A stretch of 10,454 nucleotides of DNA from contig JAPDJY010000071.1 of NCBI GenBank assembly GCA_029258835.1, forward strand, positions 1 to 10,454. The letters run 5' to 3'. The notes under the pieces are model-generated. The model did no database searches. It was not told the origin of the DNA and saw nothing but the letters and a program-made list of their open reading frames with translations. Position numbers and translations under genes: made by a program. Below are positions 683 through 7,599 of the stretch, one piece after another; position 1 is the stretch's first letter; every line of letters starts with the position of its first letter. This DNA is from Thermoproteota archaeon. Lineage in GTDB: Archaea > Asgardarchaeota > Jordiarchaeia > Jordiarchaeales > Freyrarchaeaceae.

Positions 683-1651
683 TTAGCGCCGCCTCATATA
701 CCATGCTATTACTGCTATGGCGGCGATGACTGCTACTCCTGCGCCACCGACCACGATCAGGAAGTTGGTCTGGCTGGACTGCTGGTAGTAGAAGAGGAAG
801 CCTAGCATTAGCATGGTCGTCGTGTCGTGTGCAAAGTAGGATACGTTAAAGTCAACTAAGTTCATCGTCATGTGTCCTGGCGCATCATAGTAGACGAAGT
901 TTTTTACTTCCGGAGAATACCAGTATAATCCCGGGAACACTAGGACGGTCGCATCTTCAGCATCCATCCTTGACACGGCCACCAGCCACGTGTCAAATTC
1001 TCCTGCCCCAGTGCTCACGGTGGTCTCGTTGATCACCTTGCCGCTAACCCAGTAATCATAAGCACCAAAATAGTAGTATGGCGAAGCCGTATAGTTCTCC
1101 CAAGTATATGTCTCGTTGCTCCATCCACCTCCCGAATAGTGCGCAATGTATCCTACTCGGTGCTCTTTCACAGAGGTATTCCACGTTTTCCCCCTTTCTA
1201 GCGGAAACTGGAAGATAGGATAGCTAGTGTTTAAAATAGATTTAATGTATGTTTCAGTATAGCTTGATTCAGCAGTATTATTCAAAATTAAGTACATTTC
1301 TGCGCGTACTATGTACATGTTTTCTTTCGAGTAGTACTGCATCATCACAAGCCGGTTAATCAGCGTATCACTTCTGGATTCAGATATTATAGTGTAATTA
1401 TACGTTTCCAAGTCCTCTGTAAGGTTCCAGTCCTCCGCGTTGAGCACCGCAACACCCTCACAACACACAGTAACGTTGTCACCCGGGTAGAAGTCCTCCA
1501 CTTCGGTAACATTGTATATCCATGTGTCGCCTTCCACTGGTTGGCCTACGGGGCTCCCACTTATGGCGACAGCTAAAGGTGTAGAGGCTAGTGGTAGTAA
1601 GAGAAGAAATGCGAATAACAGCACTGCTAATAATAAATTTCTACAAGTCAT
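683..1651 (-). CDS. Secreted, C-terminally membrane-anchored cell-surface glycoprotein (322 aa)
   Basis: N-terminal signal peptide (RNLLLAVLLFAFLLLLPLAS). The Tyr/Thr/Asn-rich body has 11 N-x-S/T sequons and motifs FPLERGKTW, ETTVSTGAGEFDTW and WYSPEV, typical of beta-rich exported domains. C-terminal TM helix plus RRR tail. RBS-like AAGGAGAAGG and a TATA box upstream. Confidence 0.88.
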   Translation of the reverse strand: MTCRNLLLAVLLFAFLLLLPLASTPLAVAISGSPVGQPVEGDTWIYNVTEVEDFYPGDNVTVCCEGVAVLNAEDWNLTEDLETYNYTIISESRSDTLINRLVMMQYYSKENMYIVRAEMYLILNNTAESSYTETYIKSILNTSYPIFQFPLERGKTWNTSVKEHRVGYIAHYSGGGWSNETYTWENYTASPYYYFGAYDYWVSGKVINETTVSTGAGEFDTWLVAVSRMDAEDATVLVFPGLYWYSPEVKNFVYYDAPGHMTMNLVDFNVSYFAHDTTTMLMLGFLFYYQQSSQTNFLIVVGGAGVAVIAAIAVIAWYMRRR

Positions 1652-1683
1652 ACGACCTTCTCCTTAACCATTCATACAAAGTA

Positions 1684-1697
1684 TACTTAAATTTTCT
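1684..1697 (-). promoter_or_regulatory. BRE/TATA promoter of the surface-protein gene
   Basis: Minus strand AGAAAA-TTTAAGTA about 33 nt upstream of the ATG at 1651. Confidence 0.5.
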
Positions 1698-2015
1698 TAT
1701 AAAAAATTTTAGATTTTAACATTTGAAGTCTCTTCTTTTTTAAGAAATTTTTTAAGAAGTTCGAGCAGGGAGCTTACTGATGTCCTTCTTATCTAGAGAG
1801 GTTAACCGTTCAAACCAAGCTTTCTGGAAAAGGAGGGATTAAGTGCTGAAAAATCTGAAATCGCTTCCTCTAAAAATGTCCCTTCATTCGCTTCGTTTCT
1901 AAAAAATAAGGGAGGATAAACGCTTAAATTTTATTGGTTGGTGGTGTTGGCCGGGTGGGTGCTTGCACGATTACGAATCGTTCCTGTGGCGTAAGCGTTT
2001 TAATATTCTAAGTCC

Positions 2016-2103
2016 ATAAAAATTGTATGAAATTCAACTTTATGAATAAAATTTCGCTTTAACCCCTATTTGAGAAGTTATGTGAATAAAAATTGCGTGA
2101 AAT
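2016..2103 (+). repeat. Imperfect 18-bp direct repeat just upstream of the cassette junction (attI-like region)
   Basis: ATAAAAATTGtaTGAAAT (2016-2033) vs ATAAAAATTGcgTGAAAT (2086-2103), 16/18 identical, 70-bp period. Partial third copy TGAATAAAATTT at 2043-2054. Confidence 0.55.
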
Positions 2104-2132
2104 ACGCGTTAAGTGAAATGCGCGTATCGCTT

Positions 2133-2146
2133 GAAAAAGATTTAAG
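2133..2146 (+). promoter_or_regulatory. Cassette-internal BRE/TATA promoter for the TA operon
   Basis: GAAAAAGA-TTTAAG about 32 nt before ATG 2178; RBS AGGTGG at 2168-2173. Confidence 0.55.
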
Positions 2147-2177
2147 CCGAGAGTGAAATAAGGTAATAGGTGGCAAA

Positions 2178-2479
2178 ATGAGAAAATCGCTTGATAGGAT
2201 AAAGGAGATTCTTAAAGAGCATGGGAAGAGCTGAAGGAAAAATATGGAGTTAAGGAGATCGGTATTTTTGGTTCTTATTTAAGAGGAGAAGCTGGAGAAG
2301 AAAGCGATCTTGATATTTTAGTGGAATTTGAGCATGATGCGAAGATTAGTCTTTTAGATTTTGTTGAACTGGAAAATTATCTCAGCGATTTGCTTGGGGT
2401 AAAAGTTGATTTGGTTGAAAAATCTGCGTTAAAACCAGGGATCGGCAAACGTATTCTAGATGAGGTTGTATACGTATGA
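2178..2479 (+). pseudogene. mntA: Minimal nucleotidyltransferase (MNT) antitoxin, one frameshift
   Basis: [15 protein letters not shown], then a 1-nt loss near 2223-2225 (premature TGA 2232-2234). The other frame continues [36 protein letters not shown]...GVKVDLV...[16 protein letters not shown] with an intact GSx10DxD motif. Stop overlaps the next ATG (ATGA). Confidence 0.9.
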
Positions 2480-2825
2480 AAAGGGAAATTGGCGACTATG
2501 TAGAGGACATTTTGGAAGCTATGACTAACGCTATGGAATTCACAAAAGATATGTTCATATGATGAGTTCGTTAAAGATGCTAAAACTGTATATGCGGTTA
2601 TCAGAGCCATAGAAATTGTTGGAGAGGCTGTCAAAAATATACCAGAAGACACGAGAAAGAAATATCCAGATATTCCTTGGAGAAGTATGGCTGGAATGAG
2701 AGATAAAGTCATACATGCGTATTTCGGTGTTAAGCTTGAAAGAGTTTGGGAAGTTGTAAAAAGAGATATACCTTAACCTTAAGCCTAAATTTGAGAAGAT
2801 ATTGAGAGAGGAGGTAAAAGAGTGA
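2476..2825 (+). pseudogene. hepT: HEPN RNase toxin (DUF86 family), two +1 frameshifts
   Basis: [26 protein letters not shown], extra T near 2554, SYDEFVKDAKTVYAVIRAIEIVGEAVKNIPEDTRKKYPDIPWRSMAGMRDKVIHAYFGVKLERVWEVVKRDIP, extra T near 2774, NLKPKFEKILREEVKE*. The Rx4H catalytic motif RDKVIH (2699-2716) is intact. Confidence 0.9.
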
Positions 2826-2886
2826 TAGCAGGAGTCTTCCGCGACGGCGGGCACTCTGCGGTACTTCGCACCTTGCCCTTCGGGTC

Positions 2887-2968
2887 ACTTAACAGGTGGA
2901 TATGTGGCTCGCTCATGCTCGCCAAAATTTGCCTACGGCAAACTTCACATATCCCCGGAACGTCATTA
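2887..2968 (+). other. attC-like recombination site
   Basis: R'' ACTTAAC (2887-2893); inner inverted repeat GGATATGTG (2898-2906) / CACATATCC (2946-2954); internal hairpin TTTGCC-TAC-GGCAAA (2928-2942); degenerate R' GTCATTA (2962-2968). Spacers are somewhat non-canonical and R' has GTC instead of GTT. Confidence 0.65.
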
Positions 2969-3188
2969 CCAACAATAAGCTAACAGAACCCTGTTTTCGG
3001 CTTTATTTGTTCCTTTGCTGCAGGGTTTGTGTGGTGGATGGTGTTTAGCTGGTGGCTGGCGTTTTGTTGCGAGTGCTGGGTTGGTGGAGGTGTAGGGTTA
3101 AGTTTCTTCATGGTTAGCGGCGTGCCGCTTTGCTGCTATTTTGCGTTAACGTTATAGGGTGGTTTTCCCGGGTTTTACCGTGGTGGTG

Positions 3189-3716
3189 TTGGGGCGGGGG
3201 AAGCGTGGGTTTAAGCTGACCATTGAGCTTGTTCCGTCCACGGCGTGGTTTTCCTCCCTTTACCATGTTTACAGGGAGGCGGGTAGGCTGGACGAGTGGA
3301 GGAGGCTTAAGGAGGAGCTCTTCGAGAGGGAGGGTAGGAGGTGCTGGATATGTGGGAGGAGGGGCGGGCGCTTGGAGGCTCACGAGTTCTGGGAGTACGA
3401 TGATGAAAACCACGTTCAGAGGCTGGTGGCTGTACATCATCTTTGCAGCATGTGTCATAAGGTGAAGCACATAGGGTTTTGGTGCTACACGAGGGAGGGG
3501 AGGGAGAGGCTGGCGAGGGAGGGGCTGACGAGGGAGGACCTGATCGAGCACTTTTGCAGGGTTAACAACTGTACGAGGGAGGACTTTGAGAGGCACGAGG
3601 AGGAGGCCTTCAGGAAATGGGTGGAGAGGAGTAGGCACCGGTGGAGGCAGGATCTCGGAAGCTATCATCCAGACGGGCAGCGGGTGTCGCGGCGGCCGCT
3701 GAAGGGTAGAGGCTAG
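3189..3716 (+). CDS. HNH endonuclease family protein
   Basis: KLTIELVPSTAW...CWICG...LEAHEFWEYDD...LCSMCHKVKHIG: Zn-binding CxxC pairs and an HNH-type active site. The ORF is open from 3159; TTG 3189 was chosen because GGTGGTG precedes it. Confidence 0.85.
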   Translation: MGRGKRGFKLTIELVPSTAWFSSLYHVYREAGRLDEWRRLKEELFEREGRRCWICGRRGGRLEAHEFWEYDDENHVQRLVAVHHLCSMCHKVKHIGFWCYTREGRERLAREGLTREDLIEHFCRVNNCTREDFERHEEEAFRKWVERSRHRWRQDLGSYHPDGQRVSRRPLKGRG

Positions 3717-3801
3717 CTGCCTCCTTCGCCGGGTGGCACCCTGTGAGATCGCAATGTTTATTTTGTCGTTTTTATTTTAGCATATTTTGAGGTGTCATAT
3801 T

Positions 3802-5184
3802 TTGAGGCGAAAAGTTTTCGTTGACAGGGAGCGGGAGGTTGGGCTGCTGGAGGAGCTTTGGGGGAAGCCCGGCTTCGCCCTAGTGTTCGTCTACGGGAGG
3901 AGGAGGGTTGGTAAGACGCGTATGCTCTCCGAGTTCTTTAAGGGTAAGCGTGGCGTCTACTACGTTGCGGTCGAGGCCCCGTACGAGGCGGTTTGCAGGG
4001 AGTTCTCCGAGTGCGTTAAGCGCTCCCTTAACATGCCTTTTTCCGGTGACGTTGTGGAGGTTATCGACGCCTTGTCTAGGGCTTGCGGGGAGAGGGTTCT
4101 GGTTGTGGTGGACGAGTTCCAGTATGTTGTTGAGGCTGACGGCGGCGTTGTTTCACGCCTCCAGCGCCTCATAGACTCGTCCCTTTCCGAGAGGGACCTC
4201 ATGCTCGTGCTTTGCGGGTCGGCGGTTTCGTTCTTCGAGGAGAGGCTGCTTGGGTATAGGAGCCCGCTGTTTGGGAGGAGGACCGCGTCCATCAAGCTCA
4301 AACCCTTGGGCTTCCTTCAGGTGAGGGGTTTCTTTCCAAGGTATGGGCTGGAGGACTTGCTCAGGGTTTACGCTGTGGCAGGTGGGACGCCGGCGTACCT
4401 TGAAAGGCTGAGCGATGAGGTTTGCTTCGAGGATAACCTGAGGGAGGCTGTGACCCCCGGAAGCTACCTTTACGATGAAGCCTTAAACCTGCTGAGGCAG
4501 GAGGTTAGGGAGCCGCGCACCTACCTTTCCATTCTCTCGTCTGTGGCTGAGGGGAGGACTTCTCAGGGGGAGGTTGCATCCGCAGCCCACGTGGATCCAC
4601 GTGCGTTGGTTAAGTACGTGGACTTGCTCGAGGAGCTTGAGATACTGGTGAGGGTGAGGCCGCTAGGCTACAGGAGGCCCGTCAGGCTGGAGTTCAAGGA
4701 CAACTACTTCCGGTTCTGGTTCACCTACCCCTACAGGCTCAGGAGCATGCTTGAGTCGGGCTATGTGGACGAAGCCGTCAGCTACATACTCGAAACGTTC
4801 AACGAGTACCTTTCGAGGGTTTTCGAGGGAGTGCTCGCGGAGCTGGCCCCCGCCCTGCACGCCAGGGGGCTGATAGACGCGAAGCCGGTGGAGGTTGGAA
4901 GATGGTGGCATAAGGACGTGGAGATAGACGTCGTCGTCAGGGAGCCGGGGAGGGCTGCGGTGTTCATGGAGGCGAAGTGGAGCAGAGTCAAGGTTAGAGA
5001 CGCTGAAAGGGAGCTCAGGAGGCTGGAGGAGAAGACGCTGAAAACAGGGGTTACGGCGCCGGAGAACAGCTACGTTCTGGCCGCCAGGGAGGTGGTGGAC
5101 GCGGAGACACCATACGAGGTGGACGAGCACAGGAAAATAATCGATTTAAAGGCAATCAGCAAGGTGCTAGGGTTAAAGCCGTAA
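3802..5184 (+). CDS. Archaeal ATPase (COG1672-type AAA+ ATPase, winged helix, C-terminal DUF234/PD-(D/E)XK domain)
   Basis: FVDREREV, Walker A YGRRRVGKT, Walker B VVVDEFQY, LCGS, SPLFGRRT, GGTPAYL, DNYFRFWF and GRWW...EIDVV...EAKW. TTG 3802 follows RBS GAGGTG (3789-3794); the ORF is open from 3787. Confidence 0.93.
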   Translation: MRRKVFVDREREVGLLEELWGKPGFALVFVYGRRRVGKTRMLSEFFKGKRGVYYVAVEAPYEAVCREFSECVKRSLNMPFSGDVVEVIDALSRACGERVLVVVDEFQYVVEADGGVVSRLQRLIDSSLSERDLMLVLCGSAVSFFEERLLGYRSPLFGRRTASIKLKPLGFLQVRGFFPRYGLEDLLRVYAVAGGTPAYLERLSDEVCFEDNLREAVTPGSYLYDEALNLLRQEVREPRTYLSILSSVAEGRTSQGEVASAAHVDPRALVKYVDLLEELEILVRVRPLGYRRPVRLEFKDNYFRFWFTYPYRLRSMLESGYVDEAVSYILETFNEYLSRVFEGVLAELAPALHARGLIDAKPVEVGRWWHKDVEIDVVVREPGRAAVFMEAKWSRVKVRDAERELRRLEEKTLKTGVTAPENSYVLAAREVVDAETPYEVDEHRKIIDLKAISKVLGLKP

Positions 5185-5385
5185 GCCAGCGGGCGGAGGC
5201 GAGCAAGCAAACTGGGTATCGGACGGGTGCCGCCACCATTAAGAAGGCTCCCCCACAAGCCAATCAGCAGTCAAGATGGAGGGATCAGAAGGGTTCTCTC
5301 GAGGAGCTCGTGGAGAGAAAAGGAGAGAGAAGGGTGAAGGGAGAAGGGGGTGGAGGGGAGGTGAAGCCGGAGGAGCCCGTCGAGG

Positions 5386-5680
5386 ATGGGGGAGCAGGTA
5401 GTTCTCCTAGACGTAAGCATTCTCATTGAAATGCTCGAGTGGCAGGCTTCAGATGGCATGTGAAGCCGGAGAACTCCGCCTCCTCCACCTCACTCCACGG
5501 GTAACTGGGAAGAGGAAGCCTTCTTCAGGGTCTGGAAGAAGCCCTTTAACGCCGTCAGCCTGACGGTGACGTTCCCCTTCAAGGCAGCCGAGACCCTAAG
5601 AGGGGCTGAGTACAGGTGGGAGCAACGCCCACGTAGCGGCGGCCACCCTGCATGGACAAGGAACGAAGAACCCGGTCATC
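5386..5680 (+). pseudogene. vapC: PIN-domain (VapC-like) toxin remnant, with a possible VapB remnant at about 5276-5401
   Basis: ATG 5386 reads MGEQVVLLDVSILIEML (PIN N-terminal hhhDxShhh motif). Later fragments KAAETLRG and HVAAATL...TKN lie in other frames. An upstream charged frame ends ...RGWGSR* overlapping this start. Confidence 0.45.
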
Positions 5681-5769
5681 CTCAGAGCCCAATAAAAAAT
5701 ATTTAAGCGCTGACACTATCACCTCTCCAGAGAGATTGGTGGAATGTTTAATGAAAATGTTGGGGTGGG

Positions 5770-6178
5770 ATGAGGGGAGGCGGGAAGATGGTTGGAGAGG
5801 CTGAATGGGACCTGGAGACTGCAGAGTATCTTCATAGAGACGGTAGGTTTAATGCTGCTTGCTTCTACGCTCAGCAGTCCGCGGAGAAAGCGGCGAGAGC
5901 ACAGCTACACTCTGCAAACGAGTCTCCTTGGGGCACCCTGTGAGGAAGCTGCTCGTCAGGTATGCGGAAGCCACGGGGAAGAGCGTCGACCGCCTCCTCA
6001 CCTGTGCAAGAGAGCTCGACAGACGCCACGTTCCGTCTACCCGAACGCACACCCGTCAGGGACGCCACACGAAGCACACGGCGAAGCAACCTCCAAGAGG
6101 GCAATAAACCACGCAAAGGAAATATTATCCTTCGCTAGAAATCTCATTGCTAGAAAATCCGTTGAGAAGGAGGCTTGA
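5770..6178 (+). pseudogene. HEPN-domain protein (PF05168-like), multiple frameshifts
   Basis: Frame 1: EAEWDLETAEYLHRDGRFNAACFYAQQSAEKAARA...PWG (stop 5941-5943). Frame 2: GHPVRKLL...ARELDRRHVP. Frame 3: YPNAHPSGTPHEAH...AINHAKEILSFARNLI...* at 6178. Confidence 0.85.
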
Positions 6179-6548
6179 GGGCGGACGTGCCACACCCAGT
6201 GATGAAGTACGTGGATGAAGTTGCTGAGAAGTTCGGGAGCAGAGCGCATCATACTTTGAGGTCAAGGGCTAGAGGAGGCCACACGCCCCACAGCGACTAC
6301 AACCTCATAGTTATCGCAGACTTCAAGGAAAAATTCCTCGACAGGCTGGAGCCTCAACGAACCCCCAAAGCCAAACATAGAAGCACCCAGCTACAACCCT
6401 CCAAGCTCGAAAAATGCTCCAGCAAGGCAACGCAACAGCCCTAACACAATACGCGAAGGAACCCCCACACGGCGAAAAATACTTCAACAAGTACTCGAAA
6501 CAACTAAAAAAGCTTCTCAACGCAGGATTAAAAAGAACAAGCACATAG
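6175..6548 (+). pseudogene. MNT nucleotidyltransferase antitoxin remnant paired with the upstream HEPN
   Basis: Start overlaps the HEPN stop (TTGA). SRARGGHTPHSDYNLIVIADFKEKFLDR is a damaged GSRARGDxxxxSDxD motif. Later fragments EKMLQQGNATAL, EGTP and GEKYFNKYSKQLKKLLNAGLKRTST* end at TAG 6546-6548. Confidence 0.75.
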
Positions 6549-7034
6549 AAACCCCCAAACACACAAAAAACAAAAAAGAAAAATAAAAACAAGCAACAAC
6601 AAGAACAGGGATTCTGATTTCGTCAAAGAGCTGTGCCAAGGATTCCGATGCAGCCTAATTTTAGCAGGTCTCCTCCATCCTCCTCCACTTCACCAATAAA
6701 CTTAATTCTACAGCACCTGTGATGACGCGTTTAATCATCTACGGCTTTTCTCTCTTTCGGCACGGAATGAGATTTTTAAGCCAGTAATCTCCATCAAATC
6801 ATCAGTTCCTGCTTTGCAACTAGACCTAAAATTAAATTATCCATTATTCTATTCTAATTGTTTAATATTTTTCAACCTTAGCGAGAATAAAACAATTCTT
6901 CTCGGAATTTTTTCATCACTAATAAATCCCGTAGCGTCGCAACCTGCAGCGCCATAACAGGGTTACAGTCCCTTGAATTCCCCTACTAGAATGAGAGATG
7001 ACTGGTGGTTTCCTGGTTCTGACTGACGCGTCTT

Positions 7035-7350
7035 CGGTTAAATCTTCAAGTTGTGTGGACGAGGTGTGGCCACATGCCCTTTTACGGCTTTTATTGGTTT
7101 CTGTTGTGGTGTTGGGAGGGTTCGTTTTCGAGGTGTTTGGGGGTGTCGAGCCCGTCACTTTCGCGGTTTGCCGGGTGTTTTCCCTGCTGTACTTCTTGGC
7201 TGGGGTATGTGTTTTTGAGTGTTGGGTACTTCGGATGGTGTTTGGGCGGAGGTGAACTTGTTGCTGGCTTCCTCCCCTTGTGCTCTTCTTTTAGAAGTTG
7301 AGTGTTGGGTTAGCGTTGGAGTTGGCGCTGGCTTCTTTTGGGTTGGCTGG
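7035..7350 (-). pseudogene. Possible heavily eroded tyrosine recombinase catalytic domain
   Basis: Ordered motif-like fragments across frames: PKEA (7344-7330), LNF, KGRK (7279-7268), QVHLRPNTIR, YSRENTRQTAKVTG, TPKHL(R)K (7144-7130), PIKAVKG, GHTS (GH at 7071-7066) and TT-(L)KI. Catalytic residues are not cleanly preserved. Confidence 0.3.
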
Positions 7351-7599
7351 GATGGGGTTTAGTGTTTTGTCGGTTGGCTCGTTCGCCTTGCTGGTGGGTT
7401 TACTTTCTGGTTTGGTGGTTTGCCTAGCTGTTCTGGTGTTCGTGAGGGTTGAGGCTTAAACCGGGAGTGGCTGCAATCCTTCACTCTGATCGCTCGTCGG
7501 CGGGGTTTTACGCCGTTAAACTTTTCCTTGGTGGCTGTGGACGCTAAACTTGGGTGGCGTGGGCGGTCGTGTGAAGCCTTCACGGGCGGGTTTCACCCT

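Follow-up and report, generated by a model that had tools for sequence, protein, structure and literature searches.

We analyzed a stretch of 10,454 nucleotides (below, the window) that makes up the whole 10.4-kb contig C60 of a metagenome-assembled genome (MAG) of 2.72 Mb in 91 contigs. Positions 1977-2990 of the window are probably (with a probability of roughly 0.78) a relic of a transposon-borne, integron-like gene-capture element. The relic comprises the stub of a tyrosine recombinase gene, an attI-like spacer, one gene cassette (2109-2962) with a broken mntA-hepT toxin-antitoxin (TA) pair and an attC-like folded site, and the end of an IS6-type transposon. The host is archaeal, as an earlier note on this DNA, written from the letters of the window, had proposed. 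Integrons are the main gene-capture system of bacteria, and their crossover splits the R' box of a site. Thus the 5' end of each integrated cassette pairs with the cassette's own R'' box. In archaea, integrons were reported only in 2022, mostly as integrase-less clusters.

Intact relatives consist of an IS6-type inverted repeat, an outward-reading tyrosine recombinase of ~269 aa, an attI-like spacer of ~90-110 nt ending in G↓TT (the arrow marks the crossover), and one to six cassettes. In transposon-borne copies a second inverted repeat directly follows the last site. Each cassette has one or two genes, preceded by a short leader and followed by a folded site with R''-L''...L'-R' boxes. Cutting by the recombinase would take place between G and TT, both in the folded site of the circular cassette and in the spacer. 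Such a cut brings the cassette's own TTRRRY to its 5' end, which fits every unit examined. In the window, a single mntA-hepT cassette would have been captured at the first position and would then have decayed together with its surroundings: the recombinase beyond codon 14 and the left transposon end would have been deleted, the TA genes frameshifted, the outer stem of the site degraded, and GTT changed to GTC at the right-hand crossover.

Recombination junctions and the predicted fold of the site

The cassette starts with GTTAAGTGA at 2108-2116, and the exact complement of this word, TCACTTAAC, forms R'' at 2885-2893 (9 of 9 bases). The cassette's own R' is composed of G2108 and TTAAGT (2109-2114), and the core of R'' is ACTTAAC (2887-2893); the two cores follow the patterns GTTRRRY and RYYYAAC, respectively. 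The inner stem of the site is made of L'' GGATATGTG (2898-2906) and L' CACATATCC (2946-2954). The crossover G at 2962 is followed by TC, and the right-hand R' now reads GTCATTA.

The same relation between the two ends of a unit is found with other sequences at other loci:

Window unit: 5' end GTTAAGTGA; R'' TCACTTAAC
Unit of contig C44: 5' end GTTAGGCGT; R'' ACGCCTAAC
Unit of G014:C21: 5' end ATTAAGTGA; R'' TCACTTAAT
Units of G403:C9: 5' ends GTTAAGTGA, GTTAAATGC and GTTATACGC; R'' boxes are the exact complements
Unit of L048: 5' end GTTATATGA; R'' TCATATAAC
L134: in three of three units R'' is the perfect complement

We assessed this relation on every definable cassette or adjacent-site pair of this and other genomes (15 pairs, failures counted) by comparing the five variable bases after GTTA with the reverse complement of R''. 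A match with the cassette's own R'' was obtained at 60 of the 75 variable positions, compared to 37.8±4.3 positions after shuffling, and none of 20000 shuffles reached 60.

The boundaries of the units are also visible as breaks of similarity. A paralogous TA unit on contig C38 (64% identity) resembles the window starting exactly from GCG↓TTA (2105-2108), and it is flanked on both sides by copies of the hairpin site ending in ...GTAGCG↓TTA. C44 and the window share the sequence to the left of the junction; the likeness stops at GCG↓TTA (2111), and a different three-gene cargo follows on C44. Contigs of four hydrothermal-vent or sediment metagenomes cover 2834-2974 with a summed depth of 1600-6000 versus 8-30 on the flanks, which makes the attC-like site a repeat of very high abundance in the communities sampled. 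Dozens of these contigs diverge from the window exactly after 2963 and continue with TAGGCGAAATG..., i.e., G↓TTAGGCGAAATG, the start of another unit; upstream, their divergence falls at 2841-2853. Moreover, the start TTA(A/G)G(T/C)GAAATG(C)CCG recurs after other sites (C18, C38, C48, G018, L052, L070, L134). As judged by sequence comparison, the boundaries of the window cassette are real recombination junctions. The geometry of an integrated cassette with crossovers G2108↓T2109 and G2962↓T2963, which the earlier note had suggested, is upheld by the covariation of the ends and by the base-sharp breaks at other loci.

The leader and the site have the following parts:

2109-2177, plus strand: 5' end of the cassette and leader; at 2109-2116, TTAAGTGA represents the half of R' that belongs to the cassette
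2134-2147, plus strand: AT-rich, promoter-like box of the leader, a putative promoter (the earlier note had named a BRE/TATA promoter); GGTGG at 2169-2173 and ATG at 2178 follow
2841-2962, plus strand: attC-like site; the repeat unit is delimited by contig ends that diverge at 2841-2853 and 2963
2849-2878, plus strand: hairpin GGGCA...TGCCC, part of the attC-like site
2876-2884, plus strand: mini-hairpin CCC-TTC-GGG, part of the attC-like site
2885-2962, plus strand: boxes of the site, namely R'' (2885-2893), L'' (2898-2906), variable loop, L' (2946-2954) and G at 2962; T2897 is predicted to be bulged

An nhmmer search with the site profile finds the window site with E = 1.2e-18. The bottom strand of the in-silico circle of 2109-2962 folds with -20.5 kcal/mol (z = -4.2), in agreement with the earlier suggestion that the cassette ends in an attC-like folded site. 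In the predicted structure of the circle, a short, asymmetric spacer separates the R stem from an L stem in which one base of L'' is bulged, and the loop is branched; compared with the textbook 5/5, the R-L spacer of the window site is both shorter and less symmetric. The L stems of different sites are related by compensatory changes (GGATATGTG/CACATATCC, GGGATATACG/CGTATATCCC, GGATATCTGG/CCAGATACC). RNAalifold predicted zero pairs for a mixed alignment of eight sites, which is too heterogeneous for this method; we used single folds and direct comparison of pairs instead. Neither Rfam (cmscan, E<=1; the attC covariance model is absent from Rfam) nor ARAGORN gave any match in 2100-3000.

Intact units possess an additional outer stem, and to our knowledge such a stem is not known from textbook attC sites. 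The first ~25 bases past the crossover pair with a stretch that closely follows the stop codon and precedes R'' by 31-60 nt. In G403 this stem measures 14 bp in cassette 2 and 17 bp in cassette 6, in C44 it measures 15 bp, and its sequence differs from unit to unit. The enlarged folds of the G403 and C44 circles have z from -7.4 to -8.4. Leaders like TTAAGTGAAATGCCCGCCG recur before unrelated genes because they are the 3' arm of the enlarged hairpin. In the window, the 3' arm of an extended hairpin takes up at least part of the first ~25 nt of the leader, and the outer stem has largely decayed.

One related site carries an insertion. In locus L014 (G014:C21), positions 437-832 are a remnant of an IS630/Tc1-like transposase that lies inside the variable loop; the site is otherwise 85% identical to the window site. 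The two halves of this site, 400 bp apart, had been considered as separate entities, which was rejected once the insert was recognized as the transposase remnant.

The short recombinase and the neighbouring arrays

The recombinase of these elements is known to us in intact form from other loci. The intact protein P0002 (269 aa), recovered from an ENA contig, scores 203 bits with the archaeal XerA model NF040815, below its cut-off of 220, and 186.5 bits with the integron integrase model TIGR02249, below its cut-off of 265; the latter match is split into two stretches. The recombinase of G403:C9 aligns with the VchIntIA structure 2A3V in two segments, and between them it has 16 residues against 61 in IntI. 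The gap is located between patch III and box II, at the position of the IntI-specific domain, which this protein does not have. In known integrases this domain binds extrahelical bases. The recombinase of G403:C9 is colinear with the XerA structures 4A8E and 5HXY, and the scores against the two kinds of structures are close (129.7 bits to 4A8E vs 131.2 bits to 2A3V). On these alignments the short recombinase would be classified neither as IntI in its accepted definition nor, by score, as XerA.

The link of the recombinase to cassettes is best seen in locus L086 (G403:C9, 9166-16040), which contains an intact 269-aa recombinase, the spacer, four profile-detected sites and five or six cassettes of the same direction. 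The recombinase gene is divergent to the spacer and the sites. Among the cargo genes, one is GNAT-like, one is DUF262-like, and others are small and unknown; no IS6 repeat follows the last site of this array. Other same-direction arrays in relatives are L134 (three sites), L052, L066, L070 and L048. We also searched 80 metagenome loci that contain relatives of the recombinase (54-74% identity) with a narrow site profile and detected 16 sites in 11 of them. All 16 are upstream of the recombinase and point away from it (chance probability ~1.7e-13; two thirds of the sequence lies downstream). Many of the metagenome recombinase genes end up within 100-250 nt of a contig end on the side of the array, as expected where repeats break assemblies. 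We infer that the short recombinase is the cassette recombinase and that folded single-stranded DNA would be its substrate.

The best surviving alternative, although an unlikely one, is that the short XerA-like enzyme swaps the units by ordinary recombination between double-stranded, palindromic dif-like sites, in the manner of the pdif modules known from Acinetobacter plasmids. The colinearity with 4A8E and 5HXY, the 203 bits with NF040815 and the missing IntI insertion all suit such an enzyme, and TA pairs are the typical cargo of pdif modules. However, pdif sites alternate, whereas the sites of an array considered here all have the same direction. Furthermore, the 31-60 extra bases with hairpins of their own are present on the 5' arm only, and L'' has a bulged base. 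Both features fit a folded single strand and not a duplex palindrome.

Probable remains of a platform and decay of the cassette

The earlier note had described the cassette as an orphan that was inserted in trans at a secondary site. The flanks of the cassette contain the following features:

1977-2017, minus strand: tyrosine recombinase stub, the first ~14 codons; the start codon is the reverse complement of 2015-2017, and the stub matches the 5' end of P0002 (MDSALKKLTPRERY...)
2018-2108, no strand assigned: attI-like spacer 'B', which runs from the start of the recombinase gene to the first crossover and ends at G2108
2963-2967, plus strand: mutated TTAT, now TCATT; 2964 is T in contigs of related strains at the same locus
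2968-2990, plus strand: IS6-family terminal inverted repeat ACCAACAATAAGCTAACAGAACC, which reads GGTTCTGTTAGCTTATTGTTGGT inward from 2990, the outer boundary of the element

The likeness of the stub to its relatives ends abruptly at 1977. The spacer contains an imperfect palindrome TTCGCTTTAAC...GTTATGTGAAT (also given as TTCGCTTTAAC...GTTATGCGAAT), and there are direct repeats at 2009-2033 and 2079-2103. Positions 1977-2121 are 77-84% identical to G014:C21, G014:C6 (other family, same phylum) and G000:C44, and 71-75% identical to G043, G143 and G144. The stub and the spacer are conserved over seven loci, each with the start of the divergent gene, and the core of the palindrome is kept beside the intact recombinases of G403:C9 and G396:C92. 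The recombinase is deleted from its 3' end to a varying extent, reaching codon ~14 in G043, codon ~25 in G014:C6 and codon ~190 in C44. By analogy, such staggered deletions may be compared to IS6-type adjacent deletion.

On the right, the junctions of sister elements read AACG↓TTAT/C-ACCAA(C), and the window reads AACG↓TCATT-ACCAAC. The GTC of the window is a private mutation of GTT, since both the contigs of related strains and the sister elements read GTT. Thus of the two origins proposed earlier for this end, the mutation is retained and the secondary site is not.

The repeat ACCAACAATAAGCTAACAGAACC, which read inward begins with GGTTCTGTT, occurs once in the window, with 0 occurrences expected by chance. 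The same repeat is found after the last site on C14, C15, C44, C59, G014:C21 and G025, and an inverted copy is present at the other end of the C44, C14 and G025 elements. The target duplication of the C14 element is exact and 8 bp long (CTTTTTAA). This element also contains what is left of a PF13610 (IS240/IS6) transposase, and intact relatives of this transposase (L037 to L040) end with the same repeat. In five metagenome loci the repeat directly follows the stop codon of the recombinase. The window keeps only the right IS6 repeat, the full IS6 signature being seen in the sister elements, and the genome encodes no intact IS6 transposase of the relevant type. IS6 transposases would presumably move the whole unit in trans. 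Readings of the motif on the right flank as dif-like or as an att duplication were rejected, as the motif is the IS6 inverted repeat with its 8-bp duplication.

Some related elements have a simpler or different content. Locus L009 (G025:C110, 599-1653) is a miniature derivative located between rpl21e and pus10; it consists of an inverted repeat, a gene of an S-adenosylmethionine (SAM)-methyltransferase, a site and an inverted repeat, with no recombinase. In L039 (107-3231) and G000:C14 (52458-53859), IS6-type elements have passenger genes between one inverted repeat and the transposase. Carriage of passengers seems to be a general habit of this IS6 group.

If a lone cassette without a platform had been inserted in trans at some arbitrary secondary site, this would agree with the single unit on the contig, with the lack of an intact integron integrase in the genome, and with the GTC right end. 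We consider such an insertion very improbable. It is already contradicted by the conserved stub and spacer on the left, by the same IS6 repeat and junction in at least six other elements, and by the private origin of GTC. Because of these left-flank remains and the recurrence of the right-hand junction, the cassette is regarded as occupying the first position of its own decayed platform; its description as an orphan inserted in trans is not supported. The empty chromosomal site that the earlier note had proposed to look for in relatives was not found, as the flanks of the window have no DNA-level conservation in 40 relatives. In the genome, where the note had also proposed to search for intI and similar sites, nothing exceeds the cut-off of TIGR02249, and about a dozen attC-like sites are spread over nine contigs, each followed by another leader or by the IS6 repeat.

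Even less credible is an explanation in which no site-specific exchange occurs, the leader and the hairpin being parts of an IS6 passenger module whose cargo is swapped by homologous recombination. The leaders and sites of different cargos are indeed alike, and all copies in the genome are in or near IS6-type ends. However, homologous exchange predicts neither the cassette-specific complementarity of the two ends, nor the base-sharp breaks at G↓TT, nor the long same-direction arrays beside a recombinase without IS6 ends. Least of all do we expect that the hairpin acts in RNA, as a transcript end or by mRNA-stabilizing 5'-3' pairing, with an incidental likeness to attC: the leader does pair with bases that closely follow the stop codon, so that an mRNA panhandle would form, and no Rfam family matches, but the linkage to the recombinase, the G↓TT junctions and the chimeric R' boxes are left unexplained.

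The cargo of the cassette consists of two genes:

2178-2479, plus strand: mntA pseudogene (nucleotidyltransferase antitoxin; PF01909, 1.9e-20; NF047752) with a frameshift between 2221 and 2231
2476-2825, plus strand: hepT pseudogene (HEPN RNase toxin; PF01934, 1.4e-24) with frameshifts at ~2554 and ~2773

The two reading frames overlap at ATGA. The domains and this overlap are the same as in MntA-HepT type VII pairs, whose nucleotidyltransferase and HEPN genes are intact and adjacent, whereas the window genes are interrupted by three frameshifts. Contigs of related strains at the same locus have an in-frame CATCGAAAAAGAGCT at 2221 and one base fewer both at 2554 and at 2773/2774. C38 carries an intact mntA-hepT paralogue (64% DNA identity) within a unit of this kind. 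Frames of at least 100 codons without a stop span 88% of the genome, and the assembly is accordingly not affected by indel errors in general; the corresponding value for the window contig is 0.71. The TA cassette of the window is most simply a pair of pseudogenes. Thus the TA pair named in the earlier note is recognizable by its MntA and HepT domains and is not intact. As for function, the copy in the window is a fossil and carries little weight.

Several observations limit, or weigh against, the interpretation of 1977-2990 as a relic of a transposon-borne, integron-like element. Five perfect inverted pairs of 9-10 nt are present within the same 1.3 kb; the 9-nt inverted repeats of the window alone are therefore at the chance level, and the case rests on comparison with other loci. 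The assignment of the site as attC-like was made from its boxes, its fold and comparison with related sites. The window contig carries one cassette unit only, the short recombinase is not found intact anywhere in the genome, and neither a circular cassette nor an empty platform (the spacer joined to the repeat) was found in the genome or among the retrieved loci. Among the metagenome loci with at least 1.2 kb of upstream sequence, a site is detectable by the narrow profile in 9 of 29. The intact recombinase of G396:C92 (L041), which is 64% identical to P0002 and has the conserved palindrome upstream, is adjoined by ordinary metabolic genes, with no site detected. A recombinase without the IntI-specific domain possibly works by another mechanism, including double-strand exchange of the Xer type. 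Finally, misassembly of a repeated gene family could account for some of the frameshifts.

Known systems and distribution

The units described here agree with integron cassettes and attC sites in every feature that can be compared at the sequence level. These are the ACTTAAC and GTTAAGT cores, the G↓TT crossover, the half of its own R' that a cassette carries at the 5' end, the inner L''/L' stem with a predicted bulged base, ~82 nt from R'' to R', mostly one-gene units in the same direction beside a divergent tyrosine recombinase, and a typical cargo (TA pairs, GNAT, DUF262). They differ from attC in the cassette-specific outer stem of 9-17 bp, in the conserved side module of 31-60 nt before R'', and in the short, asymmetric R-L spacer. 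The associated enzyme, as far as its alignments tell, falls outside IntI, and this is the main gap in the argument.

Class 1 integrons in Tn402-type transposons have the same layout, i.e., inverted repeat, integrase, attI, cassettes and inverted repeat. Here as there, the last crossover is a few bases from the transposon end and many copies have no transposase of their own. The ends are different, being of IS6/IS240 type here (GGTTCTGTT..., 8-bp duplication), and the hosts are mostly uncultured archaea of vents and sediments. Compared with XerA/dif and pdif systems, the recombinase is about as close to XerA as to VchIntIA and has the length and domain layout of XerA. However, it scores 203 against the XerA cut-off of 220, and it is accompanied by arrays of long asymmetric hairpins and not by 28-bp dif sites.

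Integrons have been described in 75 archaeal MAGs, mostly as integrase-less clusters, with TA systems as the commonest cargo (Ghaly et al. 2022, PMC9668308). In that study singleton attCs were excluded, and six IntIs were described with the additional domain, which the recombinase considered here does not have. The text of Ghaly et al. 2022 (PMC9668308) mentions neither carriage by transposons nor a short Xer-like integrase, and the words of our site have no match in the supplements compared. A 2021 review of archaeal tyrosine recombinases names integrons only in passing. Thus archaeal integrons are already published; within a limited literature search, the short integrase, the outer stem and the carriage by IS6-type ends appear to be unreported.

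We give even odds to a broader proposal, namely that these elements form a separate lineage of integrons that is common among uncultured archaea of vents and sediments and present in some bacterial MAGs. Such a lineage would have a ~269-aa XerA-like integrase without the IntI-specific domain and attC sites with an outer stem. It would often be placed between IS6-type inverted repeats, as an archaeal counterpart of mobile integrons, and be scored as integrase-less by standard finders.

The locus leads to a family in which the array-linked recombinase has no domain of the kind thought necessary for recognition of folded attC. If the short recombinase is active, the accepted requirements for attC recombination need revision, and many 'integrase-less' archaeal clusters would then have an integrase beside them. 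Carriage by IS6 ends would allow archaeal cassettes to move as a whole platform. The finding of this site family in bacterial MAGs as well is relevant to gene transfer between archaea and bacteria.

To describe the distribution of the sites, we used a 17-mer of the site that matched 35 loci of a species-genome collection. About 140 matches are expected by chance, and we kept the 20 of 35 loci that were confirmed by the full-length profile. Confirmed arrays are found in Ca. Methanoxibalbensis, in Methanosarcinales and in an unclassified archaeon, and single sites in Archaeoglobales, Thermoplasmata, Ca. Alkanophaga and an Asgard MAG. A few contigs binned as bacteria carry the site family (L070, L069, L051, L059, L078), including a three-site array; an example is Neomarinimicrobiota with three sites. 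In L078 ('Nitratifractor') the two profile scores are the same as those of two of the sites of L066, a contig of Ca. Methanoxibalbensis, which suggests that the two are the same DNA. This likeness may come from a binning error or from transfer between domains. As for the host of the window, a guess that it takes part in methane cycling was dropped, as McrA was not found in the genome.

The rest of the window shows several minor features. In 5200-7600 and 8100-9250 there is no open frame longer than ~130 codons and the GC content is 50-58%; these parts may be broken genes or non-coding DNA. The minus strand of 7600-8088, 9252-9686 and 9677-10120 has a run of small open reading frames (ORFs) of coiled-coil-like proteins, whose Pfam matches are solely weak, sub-cut-off ones to unrelated coiled-coil families. 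Positions 1050-2850 form an island of low GC content (33-41% vs ~50-60% around). It begins ~900 bp left of the recombinase stub, within an ORF of 322 aa (683-1651) that matches no family, and there may be further foreign DNA left of the stub.

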